DNA of 64,000 bases from Patescibacteria group bacterium UBA6017 (GTDB lineage Bacteria > Patescibacteriota > Saccharimonadia > UBA4664): contig DIZX01000002.1 of NCBI GenBank assembly GCA_002429485.1, positions 3,082 to 67,081 of the forward strand. Direction: 5' to 3'. The notes under the pieces were generated by a model that was not told the DNA's origin, did no database searches, and saw only the letters and a program-made list of their open reading frames with translations. This document shows, one piece after another, positions 17,088 to 63,135 of this stretch (its first letter is position 1; every line of letters starts with the position of its first letter). The translations under genes were made by a program, and so were the position numbers.

Positions 17088-17574
17088 AAGTCACTCCTAA
17101 TATTCTTCCGAGAGCTAGTATACCAAACTTAAGCTTGATACGTGGAGTGTTTTTAGATTAAAATCGTTGCATCAAACTTATGCTTACATATATTACATTG
17201 CTTATTTACCTAAAATGTGGTTTAATGCTTAAGTTCATATTCGGTTGGGGATGTGAACGAAATAAATAGTTTTGGGGCCTCACCTTGAGGCTGCGGAATT
17301 GAGAGTCTGATGACTGTTTGAGAGTGTTTACACCTCCAACCAGCCCAATCCCCCTCTCCAATCCGCATCGCAAAAGTGAACGGAAACATTTCGGCCTAGC
17401 TACTTCGGCGGCAGCCACAATGCATGTTCACGGCGATAACCTATCAAAAAACTATACTTGTTTTTGCACCGTCGAACTGTATTCGCGTGAGTTCCCTGAA
17501 CTCCGCCGCCGCCCAAATGGCAGGCCGTTCCGGTCAAAAACTCAAAATCACATAAAAAGGGTGGTCGCGTTCGC

Positions 17575-18480
17575 GTGACTACTTTCCCCACCAAATGGAC
17601 ACGGGTCCCGCTTCCTCCTCGGAAGCGGGACCTCTCCCTTTTTAATAACCTTTGGCGTTTTCTTGACATACCGCTGCATATCTGGGATTATCCACACGAC
17701 CCCCGTTCTTTGACCCGACCGCCGAGGAGAATCATGACCGATTTTGTGCGAACCAAAGTTGACGAAAACCTTCGGCCGAAGCGGCCGAAGTTCCGCCTTT
17801 CCGGTGCAGTTGGATGGCTATTGTTCCCAGGAATTGACGCCGTGCTCGGCCCAACCCAGCGAGCAGACGGCAGCTTCCCCCTGCAGGTGCGGAGGCTGGC
17901 CAACGAGATCACGATCTTTCGAGGCGTGCTGATGCACCTAATGGCCGCCCTGTTTGCCTGGGCAGCCATTTGTCGCCAGACGGTATTCATGGTGATCATA
18001 TTGACCGTAGTCGCGGTGTTGTTCCTACTGGACGGGCTTGACGGAGAAGTTGCCCGCTACACGAAGGCTCAATCCCAATGGGGAGCGAGGTGGGATCCGA
18101 TATTCGACAAACTTGCCGGAATATCTCTGATGTTCTGGTGGCTCGTTTTGATCTACCACTTCGATCGCGGTCAGTTTGCCGTCTCGCTGTGGCTGGTGAT
18201 CGTACGAGCGTTTTTCGATCTGATTCTGGCAGTCATTGCCGAGATGGAGGATCGTCGCGATTTGAAACCCAAGGCTGGCCCCTGGGGCAAGATCAAGGCA
18301 ACGTTCGACGACTTTTCAATGCTTGCAGGCTATGCAGGTATAATCATCTATTCCTCGGGAGGTTCGGGGCATGATGCTATTTCGACTGGCCAGTGGCTAC
18401 TGCTTGCAGCCTGCACATTCGCTCCTCTGAGCATTTGGGAGCACTTGCGCAGTCTCTGGCGTCGGCGCCGCACTGCCTGA
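17575..18480 (+). CDS. CDP-alcohol phosphatidyltransferase family
   Basis: DGLDGEVAR...GARWDPIFDK signature; multiple TM; start uncertain. Confidence 0.88.
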   Translation: MTTFPTKWTRVPLPPRKRDLSLFNNLWRFLDIPLHIWDYPHDPRSLTRPPRRIMTDFVRTKVDENLRPKRPKFRLSGAVGWLLFPGIDAVLGPTQRADGSFPLQVRRLANEITIFRGVLMHLMAALFAWAAICRQTVFMVIILTVVAVLFLLDGLDGEVARYTKAQSQWGARWDPIFDKLAGISLMFWWLVLIYHFDRGQFAVSLWLVIVRAFFDLILAVIAEMEDRRDLKPKAGPWGKIKATFDDFSMLAGYAGIIIYSSGGSGHDAISTGQWLLLAACTFAPLSIWEHLRSLWRRRRTA

Positions 18481-52752: not shown

Positions 52753-53763
52753 GTGACAAACTATTCGGCCTGGGACGTGTCTAGCCAAGACTTTCCAATA
52801 AAAGGAGCTATCGAAAAGCAGATCGAGTTTTTGTGCCGCTACGCCATATTGGCGCCATCAGTACACAACGTTCAACCGTGGAGATTCGAGATCGACAACA
52901 GCACCTTGCGAGTATTTCTGGCAAAAGAACGCACGCTCGAAGCGGGAGACCCTACCGGCCGGGAGGGTTGGCTAAGTATCGGAGCGGCTATAGAGAATTT
53001 GCTCGTGGCGGCAAAATATTTTGGCCTAAGCGCCGCAGAGATACGGCGCAATGCCCATAGTGTGGAGTATGCATTCACTCCCGGCCAGGCCGATCTACAT
53101 CTCGAACCACTTATGCAGGCGATGGTTAACCGCGCCAGTAACCGCGAGCCATACTCCTCCACCCCGGTAGCGCGTGAGACACTCGATGAGATAGCAGGAA
53201 ATCAGGATGAGGGCGTTCAGGTCGTAGCTTCGAGCGACCGTAAATTAATCGAGCTGATTGCTAACCTCACTGGCCGAGCCATCGCAATTGCGCTAGGCAA
53301 TCCCTCATTTCGTGACGAACTGAGCTCCCTCGTACGCTCAAGTTGGACAAAAAAATCTACCGGCATGCCGGGATTCGGATTGGCAGTGTCGGGGGCCCGT
53401 TCGCTTATAGAGAATAAACTCATTCGGAGCGGTGCAACCGCTGATGCTCAGGGGAAGAAAGAACACGATGTGTTGATCCACAGCGGGGCTGTGGTGCTGG
53501 TATTTGCAGATGGCGACACACAGCCATACTGGATCAATGCCGGACGGGCCTATCAGCGCGCCGCGCTGGTGGCAACGGCTCATAGCCTAGATACCGCAAC
53601 TATGGCTGCCACCGTTGAAGCCGCAGACTTTCATCTTGATGTTGAGCGATATTGCGATACTGGCGGACGGCTGCTAGCCGTGATGCGCATCGGACACTCC
53701 GGCAAGCCCGCGCGGCATTCGCCCCGATTGGCTGCGCACGAAGTAGTTACATTTTCTTCATAG
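52753..53763 (+). CDS. Nitroreductase-fold (Acg/Rv3131-like) FMN protein
   Basis: AILAPSVHNVQPWRF, GAAIENL, RASNR.PY, AGRAYQR, MRIG...SPR. Confidence 0.85.
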   Translation: MTNYSAWDVSSQDFPIKGAIEKQIEFLCRYAILAPSVHNVQPWRFEIDNSTLRVFLAKERTLEAGDPTGREGWLSIGAAIENLLVAAKYFGLSAAEIRRNAHSVEYAFTPGQADLHLEPLMQAMVNRASNREPYSSTPVARETLDEIAGNQDEGVQVVASSDRKLIELIANLTGRAIAIALGNPSFRDELSSLVRSSWTKKSTGMPGFGLAVSGARSLIENKLIRSGATADAQGKKEHDVLIHSGAVVLVFADGDTQPYWINAGRAYQRAALVATAHSLDTATMAATVEAADFHLDVERYCDTGGRLLAVMRIGHSGKPARHSPRLAAHEVVTFSS

Positions 53764-54997
53764 CTCGGTCGAGAATCCGAGAGTGCTGGCGGTGACGGAG
53801 CTTGTGTTTGATACCCACGCGTCCTTCGATAAGTGTGCTCTCGAGCGAAACGATAGTACGCCCAGATTTGAGCGGCTCGGACAAAGCAAGTTGCCGGACC
53901 GCAAATGCCACTACAGCCCCAGCAATCATGGCGGTGCCTCCGAGTTGAGGTTGAGTGGGCAGGGTGGATCCAACTTTTAAAAGTGATTTCTGCATATCAA
54001 GCGGAACATTTTTGGTGCCAATGATAGCGGTGGCGTATTTGAGCCACTCGCGCTGAGACATATCTTTGCGGCTGAGGATTTCTTCTATGTTGCCGACCAG
54101 CCCGTGAAACAGCGGTAGATTTGGGTTGAGATCGTAACGCTCAACGTCGAGCATAACGTCATCCCCGAGATCGGTGGCCATAATAACGGGTATACGGCGC
54201 TCGCGGGCGGCCACCCGAAGTCGGATCTTAACCTCTAGGTCGTCAATTTCATCTATCAGGACGTCGGTCGGCCAGGGATGGTCGAGAAAATCGGGCAGGG
54301 TATCTGGCTTGACGGGGGCATGGAGCTGCTCGAGCTGAATATACGGGTTCATTTCGTAGAGTTGGCGGGCAACCACGCGGGCTTTTTCTTCACCTACACT
54401 CGCCACTCCGGTACGAATGCGGTTAAGATTTGAGCCGCTGATGACGGCGCCGTCGGCAATTTTCATCCGACTCGAGCCACCCTGCAAGATCAAAGCCACG
54501 GCCGCACTGCTGCCGACGCTCATCCCGAAGCAAGCCGCGTTGATAGCGGCGTACTGAGTTTGTTGTGCCGCGGTGATGAGGTCTTTGTTTCGCACAGTCC
54601 TCAACGCCGTAAATAGCTGCTCTTCGAGAATGTGAACAAGTTGACCATTCCATGGGTAATATACCCAACTGCCCTTGCGCCAGGCCGGCACCCCGGCATA
54701 GTGCTGGTCGAGCATTTCAGCGATAGAGTGCTGCTTAATGTCTGGGCTGGCGCGGTAGAGATGGGCGTTTTCGCTGATGAACAGCTCGGCAAGCTGTTCA
54801 TCATAATTATCGATTACCTTGGTGATGCTGGCACCTTCGAGAATCTTCTCAAGACGCAGCTCGCCAGCGGCATCGTCGAGGCTTACTACTACCGGCGCAT
54901 CGGCCGAGTCGTGCAAAGTCGCCCGGGAAGCGGCCGCCTGAAGGTATTCCGGCCAGGTGCCAGAATAGTCGGTCTTAGAGAGGTTTAAGTGTCCCAT
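53747..54997 (-). CDS. ThiF/E1-like adenylyltransferase (Rv1355c/MoeY-type)
   Basis: WVYYPW, RTVRNKDLIT, GMSVGS, ADGAVISGSNLNR, IDEIDD, DVERYD, PQLG. Confidence 0.88.
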   Translation of the reverse strand: MGHLNLSKTDYSGTWPEYLQAAASRATLHDSADAPVVVSLDDAAGELRLEKILEGASITKVIDNYDEQLAELFISENAHLYRASPDIKQHSIAEMLDQHYAGVPAWRKGSWVYYPWNGQLVHILEEQLFTALRTVRNKDLITAAQQTQYAAINAACFGMSVGSSAAVALILQGGSSRMKIADGAVISGSNLNRIRTGVASVGEEKARVVARQLYEMNPYIQLEQLHAPVKPDTLPDFLDHPWPTDVLIDEIDDLEVKIRLRVAARERRIPVIMATDLGDDVMLDVERYDLNPNLPLFHGLVGNIEEILSRKDMSQREWLKYATAIIGTKNVPLDMQKSLLKVGSTLPTQPQLGGTAMIAGAVVAFAVRQLALSEPLKSGRTIVSLESTLIEGRVGIKHKLRHRQHSRILDRAMKKM

Positions 54998-56469
54998 TAG
55001 CGCTTAACCCAACGGTGCTTTACGCCCTTAGCAAAATGTTCCTGATCGCCGAATTCGATCAGGTTTACCACCGGTTCGGCCTTATCCTTAACTGCGCTGT
55101 AAAGCTTACGAAATTCGCCGTTTAATTTGGTTAGTTTTGTGATGAGGGTACGGCTGGCGATGGCCTTGTACTCAGCCTCTGGGCGAATACCCCTGGCTAG
55201 TTCTATGTTGATCTCAATATACTGATCCATATCGGACTTATTGTTAGTGGCCATGGTGAATTTACCCGTAACCCAGCCGCGCATTTTGGGGTCCACCAGA
55301 GCAGCTTTAATGTTTTCGGGGTAGATATTGACGGCGTAAATAGTGGCGGTGAAGTCTTTGCGCCCGTTCAGGTAGACAAACGGCAAATGCCACGGCTTAG
55401 TGTCTATACCGTGTTGGGCTATCCCCTGTGCAAAAGCGGGTCCGGCCATGGCTACGGCTTCGTCATAAGGGAGAATACCCCCGAGATCATGGATATTGTA
55501 GCGCAACAAGGGAATACCCGCGTAGGCGGAAAACACCATCTCGCCGCCAACTGACTCGAAATAACGGCTCATCGGGTCGTACTGCATTAGAGACGGCAGG
55601 ACTTCGGTTCCGAAATATTTTTGACTGACGGCTGGACGTCGATTGAGTATACGCCGAAGTAATATCGAAACCGGGGTTTCGTGTCCAAGCATAGCGGCAT
55701 CGGCACTGCCATATATATTTATGCCGCCGCGGTAAGGATCGCGAGAGCCGACTTGACGCAGCATGTAGTCCCGCCACTCTTCACTGAAGGCTTCACCTGC
55801 CCACATAAATTTCACGTTAAGGCGGTTCCACCGAATGCCCTGGTTGCGGCCCTCATCCAGAATATCTTTGGTGAACGGCGGATATCCGGCAATAATCACC
55901 TGCTCATACTGGCTGCCGAGGTGCTTAATAGCTTTAACGGCTTCTTCTTTTTCCATTCCGGGAGTGACGAGGTTTATCTTGAGACCATGTTCGATGGCAC
56001 CAAGTGTACTCGAGGTGGTGTACGACCCGGCGATCCATGTACCCATCGAGAAGCAGACAACAACGAGCGTGGATTTGTGGTCGGCATTGAATATTTCGCG
56101 GTAAATGCGGGCGTGGAGCACAGCGCCTTCGACGTCTTGTCCCAAACTACGAGGCCAGAAAAAGGGTGCCCCCGTTGAACCGGAGCTAACTGAAATAATT
56201 CGGGAATGATCCAGCGTGCCGTCCCAGCAGAGCTCTGCGAGCGGGTATTTGGTGAGGTAATTTTTTTTGTCGACAAGCGGAAGCTGCTTGAAATCAGCAA
56301 TAGTTTTCACAGACTTCGGGTTGACGCCGGCCTGCTTCAAGAAATCTTTGTAGGCGGGGACTCTCACGGCGGCTTCACTAAAAAGTTTCAGCACCGATCG
56401 ATCGGCGGGAAGTGGATCAGAAGCGACAACATTTCCCGTACGGAATAGGGTGTTTGTGATTATCTTCAT
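54997..56469 (-). CDS. Phenylacetate-CoA ligase (PaaK)-family adenylating enzyme
   Basis: VPAYKDFL, SSGSTG P-loop, AGYP, AGE, YGSAD, PLLRYNIHD, GR, NIYP. Confidence 0.88.
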   Translation of the reverse strand: MKIITNTLFRTGNVVASDPLPADRSVLKLFSEAAVRVPAYKDFLKQAGVNPKSVKTIADFKQLPLVDKKNYLTKYPLAELCWDGTLDHSRIISVSSGSTGAPFFWPRSLGQDVEGAVLHARIYREIFNADHKSTLVVVCFSMGTWIAGSYTTSSTLGAIEHGLKINLVTPGMEKEEAVKAIKHLGSQYEQVIIAGYPPFTKDILDEGRNQGIRWNRLNVKFMWAGEAFSEEWRDYMLRQVGSRDPYRGGINIYGSADAAMLGHETPVSILLRRILNRRPAVSQKYFGTEVLPSLMQYDPMSRYFESVGGEMVFSAYAGIPLLRYNIHDLGGILPYDEAVAMAGPAFAQGIAQHGIDTKPWHLPFVYLNGRKDFTATIYAVNIYPENIKAALVDPKMRGWVTGKFTMATNNKSDMDQYIEINIELARGIRPEAEYKAIASRTLITKLTKLNGEFRKLYSAVKDKAEPVVNLIEFGDQEHFAKGVKHRWVKR

Positions 56470-58879: not shown

Positions 58880-61300
58880 CTAGAGGTCCAGCCGGGCGAA
58901 TACGCGCCGCTTCACGAGCTCGGCAGCCAGCAGGTAGGCCAGCACGATTGCAAGGATGGCAGCAAAGGCAGGAAATGGCAGCGGCGAAAACTTAAAGTAT
59001 TTTGCCAGGGGGCTAAATACTATGGCATAGCCCGCCAGAACCGTACCGAGCGTGCTGAGCAAGAGATAAGGGCTTGGACTACTCTGGATGAAGGGGAGGT
59101 GGCGCGTGCGGATGACGTACACCACAAACGTCTGAGTGGTAATTGATTCAAGAAACCAGCCGGTTTGAAACTGGGGGGCGCCGAAATGAAACACAAACAA
59201 CAAGAGCCCGAAGGTAGCAAAATCGAAAATTGAGCTAAGCGGGCCAAAGCTCCACATGGCGTGCTTGAGGCCCGAGATACTGAGCTTGCGCGGGCGCTTG
59301 ATGCCGTCGGGGTCGACGCCGTCGAGCGGAAGGGCAAACTGCGAGGTGTCATAGAGCAGGTTGGTGAGCAGGATTTGGGTCGCCTGCATGGGCAGGAACG
59401 GGAGAAAAAGGGAGCCGCCAGCCATCGAAAACATATTGCCAAAGTTGGAACCCAGCGACATCATAAGGTATTTGAGCGTGTTGGCGTAGGTGCGGCGGCC
59501 CTCAATGATACCTTCTACGAGGCTGGCCAGGCTTTTATTGAGCAGGATGAGATCGGCGGTGGCCCGGGCTACGTCCACGGCATTGTTTACACTTATCCCG
59601 ATATCGGCGGCCTTGAGCGCCGGCGCGTCATTGATTCCGTCTCCCAAATAACCAACCACATGTCCGCCGGCGCGCAGCTGCTCGATGATACGCAGCTTTT
59701 GCTCGGGATTCACTCGGGCAAAGATAGTGGTAGTTTCAACGGCGTCCCGAAGCTTCGGCCGGCTCATCTTCTCGATCTCGGCTCCAGTCAGAATACCGGT
59801 GATTTCCAAACCGATATCGCTGGCAATCTTGCGCGTCACGAGAGCATTATCACCCGTAACGATCTTCACCTGGATGCCGTACTCGACCATTTTCTCGAGG
59901 GTGGATTTCACCGACTGCTTAGCGGGATCAAGAAACGCAATAAAGCCAATGAAGGTGAGGCCGTGCTCGCATTCCGGTTCGTAGCGAGCCTGTTTGGGCA
60001 GCGCGCGGGTGGCAACGGCCAAGACGCGGAAGCCCTGGCTTGAGAGGGTGTCGTATTGGCGTTGGACCTCGTCCTTGACCTCCTCGAAGCTCTTTCCGCC
60101 GGCATAATGCGAGCTAATGCGCATAATCTCTTCGGGCGCACCCTTGGTCACGAGGAGGCGCTTGGTACCATGGGCCACGGCCACCGATTCACGTTTGCGT
60201 TCAAAATCGTAGGGAATTTCATCGAGCTTGGTATAGCCGTGAATATCGACGGTCTTGAACGCGCGCACGGCGGTATCGAGTGGATTTTCGAAACTGGTCG
60301 TGTAGAAGCTTGCCAGATAACCGTGCAGCAACACGCTATCGGACTCGGTACCAAAGCCATCCACATGTCTTACCAGGGCGATGTGATCTTCGGTGAGGGT
60401 ACCCGTTTTGTCGGTACACAGAACGTCCATCGAACCAAGGTTTTGAATTGAGGCCAGCCGCTTCACGATTACGCCGTGCTTGGCCATGCCGAGTGAACCT
60501 TTGGTGAGATTCAGCGTGATAATGAGCGGCAATAGCTCAGGGGTGAGACCTACTGCAAGCGCCACGCTGAAGAGTAGCGCCTCTAGGGGATTATGGCGAA
60601 AAAGTATATTACACGTGAAGATAAAAATAACTAGCACCGAGGTGATTTTAATAATCAGCAGGCTAAAATCTTTTATTTCACGATCAAACTCAGTGGGCTG
60701 CTCCTCCGAGGAGAGCTCGCGGGCAATGTGAGAGAACTTGGTGGCGTGGCCGGTGCGCTCGACCTGCATCAGGCCCGAGCCGCTGATGATGCTCGAGCCG
60801 AGATACAGTGTTGCGCCCGGCGGCTTACCCACAGGGAAAGACTCCCCGGTGAGCGAAGACTCATTTGCCGACAAGTCCTTGCCCTCGAGCACTACCCCAT
60901 CGGCGGGAATTAGGCGCCCGGCCGTGAGCTTCACCACATCCCCCGGCACCAGATCAGCCAATGGCAGGCTCACCCACTCGCCATTTCGGCGAACATCAGC
61001 CTCAACGCGCACCCGATCGTTGAGTTCGGCGGCCGCCTTTTCGGAGCGATAGCTATTCACGAAGTCGAGTACGGTGCTCACGAGCACAATGGCAATAATA
61101 ATGAAGAAGCTCACAAGATCGCCGAAAAAGGCTGAAAGTGTAGCTGCAAGCATCAAAATAATTACGAGCGGATTCGTAAAGCGGGCCAAAAATGCCAAAA
61201 TTGGCGGCGTGGATTTACCCTGCGCCAAGGCATTTGGGCCATAGTGCTTGAGTCGTTTGGCGGCTTCTTTGGACGTGAGGCCGGCGGTATCGTTCTTCAT
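58880..61300 (-). CDS. mgtA: Mg2+-translocating P-type ATPase (P3B)
   Basis: LTGES, AVGLTPELLP, DKTGTLT, GDGINDAP, SNFGNMFS, NLLYD, FQTGWFLES. Confidence 0.95.
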   Translation of the reverse strand: MKNDTAGLTSKEAAKRLKHYGPNALAQGKSTPPILAFLARFTNPLVIILMLAATLSAFFGDLVSFFIIIAIVLVSTVLDFVNSYRSEKAAAELNDRVRVEADVRRNGEWVSLPLADLVPGDVVKLTAGRLIPADGVVLEGKDLSANESSLTGESFPVGKPPGATLYLGSSIISGSGLMQVERTGHATKFSHIARELSSEEQPTEFDREIKDFSLLIIKITSVLVIFIFTCNILFRHNPLEALLFSVALAVGLTPELLPLIITLNLTKGSLGMAKHGVIVKRLASIQNLGSMDVLCTDKTGTLTEDHIALVRHVDGFGTESDSVLLHGYLASFYTTSFENPLDTAVRAFKTVDIHGYTKLDEIPYDFERKRESVAVAHGTKRLLVTKGAPEEIMRISSHYAGGKSFEEVKDEVQRQYDTLSSQGFRVLAVATRALPKQARYEPECEHGLTFIGFIAFLDPAKQSVKSTLEKMVEYGIQVKIVTGDNALVTRKIASDIGLEITGILTGAEIEKMSRPKLRDAVETTTIFARVNPEQKLRIIEQLRAGGHVVGYLGDGINDAPALKAADIGISVNNAVDVARATADLILLNKSLASLVEGIIEGRRTYANTLKYLMMSLGSNFGNMFSMAGGSLFLPFLPMQATQILLTNLLYDTSQFALPLDGVDPDGIKRPRKLSISGLKHAMWSFGPLSSIFDFATFGLLLFVFHFGAPQFQTGWFLESITTQTFVVYVIRTRHLPFIQSSPSPYLLLSTLGTVLAGYAIVFSPLAKYFKFSPLPFPAFAAILAIVLAYLLAAELVKRRVFARLDL

Positions 61301-61330
61301 GGTTATGCTTATTATAACCTGCAGGCAACC

Positions 61331-61360
61331 AAAAGCCCCACCGTTTTTTAAGGATGGGGC
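61331..61360 (-). terminator. Intrinsic terminator ending the upstream non-coding unit
   Basis: Minus strand GCCCCATCC-loop-GGTGGGGC-TTTT. Confidence 0.75.
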
Positions 61361-61845
61361 GTTGGGATAGGGGGATAATTCAGGGGAACCGCGCTGTCTC
61401 CATTTCGGTCGTGAGACCAAATTGGGGGTAGCGGGTTGTCATCGGCAGTCCGAGGGAACTAAAGTCCGTGGACCAGTCGATCGCTTAACTTAAGCGGCAA
61501 AACCTTTGTAACAATGTTTTTCCACGTATGGAAAAGTTATTTCCTCGTTGAGGAGGATGGGTGTTGCGGCAAGGCGAGCTAGCCTTGGTTTGAACATCGT
61601 TCAGATTTGCTTTAAGCTTCGACACTCTTGCGAGTGTAGCTTAGATCAAATTTGATCGATTTTTTGCAGCAAGCTGCAGGTTTGAGACCGGAGTCTCGTG
61701 TGTCCATTGTTGCCCAGGGGGCAAATATCCAGGAAAGACTCCCAGATGTGTCATAGGGCACTAGATGAACTCTGCTACGAGAGTGCATTTAGTGTCGCAC
61801 GACGTTATCGCGAAGAACGCATACTGCTTATGTAATTTAAAGTAT
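61331..61845 (-). ncRNA. Candidate ~510-nt multi-hairpin non-coding RNA
   Basis: Bounded by a promoter and a terminator, no ORF of 60 aa or more inside, about 13 consecutive stem-loops with A/C-rich linkers. Confidence 0.6.
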
Positions 61846-61850
61846 CGTAT

Positions 61851-61879
61851 AGAATATCACAAGATTTATAGCACGTCAA
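61851..61879 (-). promoter_or_regulatory. Sigma70 promoter with extended -10
   Basis: TTGACG-17 nt (ending TGA)-TATTCT. Confidence 0.7.
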
Positions 61880-61884
61880 GGACT

Positions 61885-63135
61885 TTATTGGACAGAGGCT
61901 TCTTCGGCTCCCAGAGCGGCGGATGCGCAAATGGTGCACTCGTTTTCTTGACGGGAGTCTTGCAGCCAAACGCGAACCGCTTGCGACCAGCGCTCGATAT
62001 CGGCATAGCCCGCGAGATCAGCCAAGCGGCGCAGAATATAGCCAATGAAACCGTAGACATGATAGCCGCGCCATTCAGCTACGGCCCAGTACTCCCCCAC
62101 TGGGAATACACTCACCGGGGCGACCGGACGGTAGGCGGGACGATCGCGGCCCGAGCGAGAACGCACGATATCGCCGGCCACATAATCGGCATCGCGAACA
62201 GCGGTCTGGGCCAGGCCCGAGTACGGCGTGGAGGCGTTGTCTCCGATGACGTAAACGTGGTCGCCGGCCTCCAGATGACTCGACACCATGACCCGTCCAC
62301 CCTTAGCCAGCTGGAAGTGCGTACCGTTGGCGTAGTAAAACGGATTGACGCTAGTACCGGCAGTCCAAACAACGGTGCGAGTGGCGATCGACTGACCCTC
62401 CAGCTCAAGGGCTGCGGCGGTTTCGGCCTTCACCTGGGCGCCCGTGATCACCTTGACCCCTAGCGACTCGAGCTTGCGCTGCACGCGGGCCGAAACGGCT
62501 TCGCTAGAGCGCGGAAGCAATCGCGGAGCAGCCTCAACGAGCTCTATCTGATAGTCGCGCCCCCCAATGTTATGCTGCGCCATGGTGCGGTTGAGGTAAG
62601 CGCCGAGCGATGCAGCCAGTTCGACACCGGTCGGGCCACCACCGACTACGACGTAGTTGAGATCAGGCTTATGTTCGGACATTAGCTGACTGTGAATATG
62701 CAGCTTAAATTCCTCGGCGTCTTCAATCGACTTGATGCCGTACGAGAACTCTTTGAGCCCGGCGATACCAAAATAATTGGTAACGGCACCGAGAGCCATC
62801 ACCAGCTCGTCGTAATGATAGCTGGTAACGCCATCGATGGAGGTGACGGTGTGAGCCTGAGGATCGATAGCCACAATGACGTCCTTAATGAGCTTCACCC
62901 GGGTGCCATCGAGTACATCGGTGAGCGGCAGAGCCGATTCCGAGCGCGAGCCGCCGGTGGCGGAATGGTAAAACTGAGGGTAGTAAGCGAAGGTACTAAG
63001 GTTCGAAATGAGGGTAATATCGAAATCAGAATGACGGCTAAGCTGGCTAGCGGCGCGAACGCCGCCGAAGCCACCGCCGATGATTAAGACTGTTGGAATT
63101 GTGCGGGGTATAGTTGCCATATCTGGTGTAATCAT
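61885..63135 (-). CDS. ndh: Type II NADH:quinone oxidoreductase
   Basis: IIGGGFGG, YDELVMALG, VVGGGPTGVELAA, VWTAG, YVIGD. Confidence 0.88.
   Translation of the reverse strand: MITPDMATIPRTIPTVLIIGGGFGGVRAASQLSRHSDFDITLISNLSTFAYYPQFYHSATGGSRSESALPLTDVLDGTRVKLIKDVIVAIDPQAHTVTSIDGVTSYHYDELVMALGAVTNYFGIAGLKEFSYGIKSIEDAEEFKLHIHSQLMSEHKPDLNYVVVGGGPTGVELAASLGAYLNRTMAQHNIGGRDYQIELVEAAPRLLPRSSEAVSARVQRKLESLGVKVITGAQVKAETAAALELEGQSIATRTVVWTAGTSVNPFYYANGTHFQLAKGGRVMVSSHLEAGDHVYVIGDNASTPYSGLAQTAVRDADYVAGDIVRSRSGRDRPAYRPVAPVSVFPVGEYWAVAEWRGYHVYGFIGYILRRLADLAGYADIERWSQAVRVWLQDSRQENECTICASAALGAEEASVQ

Follow-up and report, generated by a model that had tools for sequence, protein, structure and literature searches.

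The DNA between an ndh-like NADH dehydrogenase gene (Pyr_redox_2; 61885..63135) and an mgtA-like P-type ATPase gene in the 64,000-nucleotide stretch analysed here (the window) very probably constitutes a conserved RNA gene that encodes no protein and is predicted to have its own promoter and terminator. The ndh-like gene, the hairpin unit (61331-61879) and the mgtA-like gene (58880-61300) all lie on the minus strand, and the unit likely gives rise to an abundant, stable minus-strand RNA of ~510 nt. The initial annotation of this DNA had proposed an independently transcribed, novel large non-coding RNA that need not be tied to mgtA; that candidate is upheld by homologs in related genomes, by covariation, by conservation of the promoter and terminator and by purifying selection. 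The mgtA-like gene, named so by the initial annotation and assigned by Pfam to the cation P-type ATPases, begins with an ATG at 61300 and has a TATAAT -10 element at 61316-61311, so delimited (58880..61316) lying outside the predicted RNA; the claim that it possesses its own -10 holds for most of the copies viewed, which have a TATAAT-like element just before the start. Among public soil assemblies, one contig covers the full window with zero differences and a second covers the element, both from one study that is possibly the source of this DNA; the public sequencing runs listed as holding it are four soil DNA runs, likewise of a single study, with no RNA run among them. The named relatives of the ndh-like gene assign this tiny, symbiotic soil bacterium to the class Saccharimonadia.

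Architecture of the hairpin unit

Transcription is predicted to start from a sigma70-type promoter (61851..61879, minus strand; -35 TTGACG at 61879-61874, -10 TATTCT at 61856-61851) and, with the start placed 7 nt past the -10, to yield a non-coding transcript of ~514 nt (61331..61844). On sequence alone the promoter is weak, three promoter-like sites occurring in 2.5 kb where 1.2 are expected; the annotated arrangement, TTGACG-17-TATTCT, is kept in position and spacing in all 11 homologous units. The following parts are on the same strand. The transcript would open with a boxA-like motif (61834..61844), recognized by comparison with homologs, with rRNA leaders and with the consensus in PMC13753749. 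P1 (61750..61803), an irregular hairpin of ~22 bp supported by covariation and by blind model matches, is the conserved 5' handle of the family. Folding and homolog comparison define a variable hairpin array from P2 onward (61444..61747) with UNCG, GNRA and CUUG tetraloops and linkers rich in A and C, which includes a hairpin with a UAGCUC loop (61570..61587) that recurs in genus homologs. A long 3' stem (61386..61443), C/A-rich in its 5' strand and stabler on the plus strand, is followed by the conserved single-stranded motif UGAAUUAUC (61374..61382) and by an intrinsic terminator consisting in the predicted fold of a hairpin and U-tract (61330..61360).

The 13 stems enumerated in the initial annotation are all present and correctly placed, but five of them cannot form as written because their loops would be impossibly short: the CGCTTAA, TTGT, GATCAA and TGCAGC stems fold with fewer pairs, and GTCC/GGAC at 61464, left with a 2-nt loop, folds within a longer stem instead. 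The proposed terminator was missed by a motif scan and recovered by folding as an 8-bp hairpin with a mean pair probability of 0.96. Folding z-scores of the unit are -6.1 for the minus strand and -6.5 for the plus strand, with 0 of 100 shuffled sequences equally stable, and the density of perfect stems of at least 5 bp (12 per 500 nt) is the highest value in a genome-wide set of 10,641 windows with a mean of 2.9 and an sd of 1.8, and is shared solely with a P1-bearing relative on contig C19 (G000b, described below). No ORF of at least 60 aa both starts and ends within the unit. Reading upstream from mgtA, its frame meets no stop as far as a TTG at 61420, inside the unit; on the plus strand a frame of 232 aa begins at 61765 and extends across ndh in antisense. 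No ORF of at least 8 aa led by a Shine-Dalgarno (SD) sequence was found in the unit. A conserved small ORF was considered and rejected, as the 46-aa frame is shifted in the relative G006.

Homologous units downstream of ndh

BLAST reached merely 2 of 60 relatives, so that synteny and models were needed to find homologs. The DNA downstream of ndh was surveyed in 23 loci from 26 genomes of the family (one locus with 10 nt only), and by eye a promoter-led hairpin unit lies 3' of ndh in 11 of the 23 genomes of the family for which an ndh locus was available, namely the genome of the window (G000), G001-G006, G008, G011, G018 and G021, one gene standing between ndh and the unit in G002. The units range from 277 to 573 nt, with local-fold z-scores of -2.3 to -12.5. 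P1 is present in nine of them, G001 having the 3' half only and G008 being only a positional homolog, and a terminator was identified in all except G008 (10/11). Promoter, boxA-like motif, P1, 3' stem and terminator are kept at the ends and the middle hairpins vary; within the genus the modules follow the order box, P1, P2, variable hairpins, UAGCUC-loop hairpin, 3' stem, UGAAUUAUC-like motif, terminator. The middle of the unit is selected for folding and free to gain or lose hairpins. At four-fold sites of ndh and mgtA, G000 is 47-54% identical to G006 and G004, whereas the element's 5' half agrees with G006 at 117 of 132 paired sites and at 97 of 136 unpaired ones; the comparison indicates that the element is under purifying selection.

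The distribution of the units also bears on the proposal, raised in the initial annotation, that the hairpins are a Mg2+-responsive leader or attenuator of mgtA. The unit is directly upstream of mgtA in G000, G004, G018 and G008 and within ~100-330 nt of it in G002, G003, G005 and G011, and in G000 and G004 the reading frame of mgtA continues without a stop into the unit; however, a long ORF separates the two in G001, a different gene follows the unit in G021, the mgtA of G006 sits on a different contig and has unrelated DNA upstream, G009, G010, G012, G016 and G017 possess mgtA with its own -10 and without the unit, and relatives of P1 adjoin unrelated genes. The window has no Rfam aptamer match, in agreement with the annotated lack of an M-box hallmark, and the terminator dominates the predicted ensemble in 9 of 10 units (0.92-0.99; 0.66 in G001), with the 5' arm pre-paired to a degree ranging from 0.00 to 0.98 and no conserved antiterminator. 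Uncoupling from mgtA in homologs and the lack of a conserved antiterminator argue against attenuation and make a leader of mgtA a most improbable identity for the unit.

Ahead of the P1 unit of G005, in the first ~1000 nt past ndh, there is another promoter-led, hairpin-rich unit (G005:C2:88000-89070, minus strand; locus L019) with at least four tiny ORFs of 7-23 aa, most with a strong SD sequence.

Covariation and strand

Double changes occur at 9 of 15 P1 pairs among nine sequences and at 19 of 22 pairs among 16 sequences, so that P1 covaries; in the 16-sequence set 83.9% of P1 cells are paired, compared with 31-39% in slid controls, and the P1 shuffle control takes no account of kinship. 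The comparison of G000 with G006 covers 66 predicted pairs, in which there are four double and seven single changes, and all seven one-sided changes yield G-U on the minus strand, in a structure predicted from those same two sequences. UNCG and GNRA tetraloops number 16 in sense versus 3 in antisense, among 43 from the 11 units, which as kin are not independent. Tetraloops and wobble changes therefore favour an RNA read from the minus strand.

The outer helices are asymmetric in the other direction. The statement that the two long outer stems pair better on the plus strand was borne out by fold comparison: on the minus strand P1 has 13 A.C versus 5 G.U cells, 1x1 mismatches comprise 24 A.C versus 14 G.U, and the 3' stem is stabler antisense in seven of seven units, with a GNRA loop on the plus strand in G000 and G003. 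Four-fold sites of ndh show a strong bias towards C on the sense strand, and the excess of A.C in the outer stems is in part due to this C-rich bias of the sense strand. A cruciform or single-stranded DNA array, or an antisense or cDNA product of the plus strand, would agree with the better overall folding of the plus strand and with that plus-strand GNRA loop, but the conserved promoter, box and terminator all face minus, the asymmetry of tetraloops and wobbles favours minus, no reverse transcriptase (RVT_1) was found in G000, which is 96% complete, and the element is single-copy in G000 by BLAST. Such an array or product is highly improbable, and a purely DNA-level role, which had been left open, is argued against by the RNA tetraloops, the minus-strand wobble changes and the boxA-like motif. 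The unit is read here as a minus-strand RNA that would have weak outer helices, the C bias accounting for the asymmetry only partly. A MITE was rejected in view of the single copy and fixed synteny.

Comparison with known RNA classes

The window has no match to the covariance models of Rfam 15, those for OLE, ROOL, GOLLD, raiA and SRP included, at the gathering threshold; at E<=10 the search gave nothing beyond two weak scores for miRNA families, both well short of the cut-off. At 19 homolog loci in total there were zero relevant Rfam matches: 11 gave nothing at E<=0.05, and a flanking tRNA was the sole match at the other eight. The reported absence of tmRNA, RNase P and SRP hallmarks is confirmed, ARAGORN finding no tmRNA in the unit and the window having no match to RF00010 or the SRP models; the tmRNA and the true RNase P gene of the genome are on contig C19, as is the true 6S RNA gene, RF00013 likewise having no match in the window. 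Three other identities were discarded: a permuted tRNA (the GUUCRAAC and UAGCUC motifs make no T arm, and ARAGORN found none at 19 loci), a group II intron 3' end (a presumed likeness confined to two homologs, without an Rfam match) and an rRNA fragment (no Rfam match).

In layout the unit resembles the CsrB/RsmY/RsmZ sponges, which have their own promoter and terminator, a variable number of hairpins, stems free in sequence and repeated GGA loops. The last of these features is absent: GGA was counted by eye in 2 of 115 predicted loops across the 11 units and in none of G000, no single loop motif repeats in the unit as it does in CsrB, and CsrA was found in 0 of 5 genomes tested. RNAIII of Staphylococcus aureus, of about 514 nt, has many stem-loops, C-rich unpaired regions, conserved C-rich loops and a toxin ORF. 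The unit is alike in size, in its many stem-loops and in its unpaired bases (34% C, 8% G), and differs in having neither conserved C-rich loops nor a toxin ORF nor target enrichment. A base-pairing regulator of the RNAIII/RsaE type, its C-rich single strands blocking SD sites, would have potential targets, since SD-like 4-mers precede 173 of 613 crudely called genes compared with 9% when shuffled; this role is nonetheless decidedly unlikely, as the positions of C-runs are not conserved and in a crude 8-mer scan matches to the unpaired segments occur in 26 of 772 initiation regions versus 19.6 +/- 6.2 for shuffled segments, 26 of 200 shuffles scoring as high.

The large RNAs OLE, ROOL and GOLLD (PMC12286853) are likewise stand-alone, 500-850 nt long and highly structured, and RNA cages of the ROOL/GOLLD kind are described there. 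Assembly of the unit into an RNA-only multimer or cage, or into a storage or condensate RNA, by tetraloop and kissing contacts would suit its size class, its GNRA loops and its several self-complementary loops, yet must be considered very unlikely: there is no Rfam match, and only the ends are conserved, while in the middle hairpins come and go and both their number and the length (277-573 nt) change, which is not what a fixed tertiary architecture would show. Patescibacteriota cluster #156,623 of bioRxiv 10.64898/2026.10.21.760802 is described as beads-on-a-string and consists of a period-7 repeat array with its reverse complement behind it; phylum and beads-on-a-string form are common to both, and the hairpin unit differs in that its hairpins are distinct in sequence.

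The boxA-like motif and rRNA-type leaders

Just past the -10, UUGAAA is exact in six of the 11 units, variant in four and absent from G001; the copy in the window is degenerate and has lost the G that its closest homolog shows in UUUGAAA. The same motif is found in the lineage's own rRNA leaders, in four of four 16S leaders (past the promoter) and two of two 23S leaders in these genomes. The boxA consensus is AUGAUCUUUGAAA in Bacillus subtilis and UGCUCUUUAACA in Escherichia coli, and NusB binding to boxA has been demonstrated; rRNA operons, suhB and CRISPR operons are the boxA targets named in the source of these statements (PMC13753749), and the boxA-nucleated complex is described as a co-transcriptional RNA chaperone in PMC8632103. 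NusB is encoded in five of five genomes and Rho in none of the five. The homologous loci G000b and G020b have boxA in the same place, of E. coli type in G000b and of B. subtilis type in G020b.

16S and 23S rRNA are transcribed separately in the genomes whose leaders were inspected. In G002 and G003 16S and 23S-5S are unlinked and separately promoted, in G018 16S also stands alone, and the 16S leaders have two box-like motifs each (L051-L054, L057-L058).

With rRNA operon leaders (PMC13753749, PMC8632103) the unit shares a strong promoter, a boxA-like motif within ~15 nt and a long hairpin; it differs in that no rRNA or tRNA follows and that it has its own terminator at ~510 nt, no Rho having been found in the genomes tested. 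The resemblance allows for a precursor of the rRNA kind, in which RNase III cuts P1, the 3' stem or both and frees the active species, either small hairpin RNAs or a mature core. RNase III is encoded, the promoter and boxA are rRNA-like, P1 is an irregular helix of conserved length (~22 bp), leader-trailer helices occur at the 16S genes of the lineage, and in two of four 16S leaders the box is followed by a hairpin whose apex, judged by eye, is similar. Processing of this type is rather unlikely, however, as 5'-3' leader-trailer pairing is not conserved, being seen in the fold of G004 only, and the hairpins are not bounded by repeats.

The promoter-plus-box pattern has 108 matches in 53 genomes, compared with 10 for the reversed pattern, a control that tests the whole pattern and not the box alone. 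Of 32 non-rRNA matches examined, 20 lead to an SD-preceded ORF, versus 34 of 107 box-less promoters of G000 (Fisher p 0.003, in a crude comparison that spans different genomes). Since box-like motifs precede many protein-coding cassettes as well, the box alone does not mark a non-coding RNA.

Many box-led promoters across the order (L107-L152; in G000, C11:47231 minus and C19:220621 plus) head short cassettes that end in their own terminator and contain ORFs preceded by an SD sequence, frequently with high GC3; housekeeping genes, mgtA among them, are by contrast nearly leaderless. Another class of box-led non-coding loci, ~350-470 nt long, occurs in three other families (G033, G035 and G038; L106, L136 and L150), with a common C-rich-loop hairpin, a conserved 3' stem and no Rfam match.

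The wider P1 family

Two models, R1 and R2, were built of P1 only, with neither promoter nor box, R2 being trained on 12 P1 sequences. R1 added the loci G006c and G020b, which adjoin unrelated genes and both have the full set of promoter, box, hairpins and terminator, and had no match in 22 genomes from other families of the order. Blind R2 matches in G015, G030, G086 and G140, the last two belonging to other orders, all have, on the 5' side of P1, a TTGACA promoter and a box-like motif, and all continue into a stretch rich in hairpins that closes with a U-tract (4/4). A fifth and weakest new match (G045, E 0.02) is coding DNA without the promoter-box architecture, and weak matches in G018:C2 and G023 were dropped for want of the same architecture. 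R2 covers 10 of 25 family genomes, two of 27 others in the order, one of these being the false match in G045, and 11 of 151 genomes, including G000, in a class-wide sample; a phylum-wide search under strict filters, with 37 candidates scored in each genome, gave none in 150 genomes. Two exact patterns had 0 matches among viral contigs, and a metagenome scan gave one match that is identical to the G002 locus and hence not new. The P1 family is patchy in its distribution.

In the genome of the window, G000b is a second P1-led structured locus of ~866 nt (G000:C19:358885-359785; L082:2385-3290). It has its 3' end in common with G020b and G024b, to both of which G015b is a close relative.

The ~744-nt P1 unit of G030 (C1, minus strand; L165) has, ~450-500 nt in, a T-arm-like stem-loop that looks like the 3' half of a tRNA, at which neither ARAGORN nor Rfam calls a tRNA. 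In G140 (C58; L179) a hairpin block with an internal duplication comes after the short P1 unit.

Predicted function and implications

The full mechanism proposed here, in which the RNA acts as a decoy or scaffold for RNA-binding proteins, is plausible at somewhat below even chances. The boxA-like motif would recruit NusB-S10, polymerase so modified by Nus factors would transcribe the gene at a high level, and the rRNA-type transcription complex would chaperone folding of the product; because no Rho was found, protection against Rho is unlikely to be the purpose of boxA. BoxA and P1 together would form a shared, protein-bound 5' handle, the long end stems would protect against nucleases, and the tetraloop-capped hairpins would be interchangeable units that bind RNA-binding proteins by shape. 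Against the handle, G001 has neither boxA nor P1, and the boxA of the window is itself degenerate. It is conceivable, though speculative and very improbable, that boxA and P1 are an address tag by which Saccharimonadia export untranslated, nuclease-proof RNAs made by the rRNA-type polymerase, arrays serving as decoys for RNA-binding proteins and nucleases of the host; as part of that same very improbable joint proposal, SD-bearing orphan mRNA cassettes with the same box would be delivered into the host cell alongside.

These genomes of ~1 Mb have little non-coding DNA, yet they keep at least one structured RNA gene of 300-870 nt under apparent purifying selection. Stand-alone boxA-led non-coding RNAs where no Rho is found would extend the biology of the Nus complex and isolate its role as an RNA chaperone, and the P1 model joins loci that look unrelated by BLAST. 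A literature search, with most subscription papers outside its coverage, found no description of the P1 hairpin-array family; the new points are the shared handle of box and P1 and its blind validation. The unit could be a new variant among the large stand-alone bacterial non-coding RNAs, and the supplements of bioRxiv 10.64898/2026.10.21.760802 could list the family as a cluster.

Elsewhere in the window, 17100-17733 is a separate ORF-poor, structured gap with no match to R1 or R2. At 53747-56469, a ThiF-family gene lies beside one for a 490-aa protein that has no Pfam match and by eye resembles the acyl-CoA ligase family.
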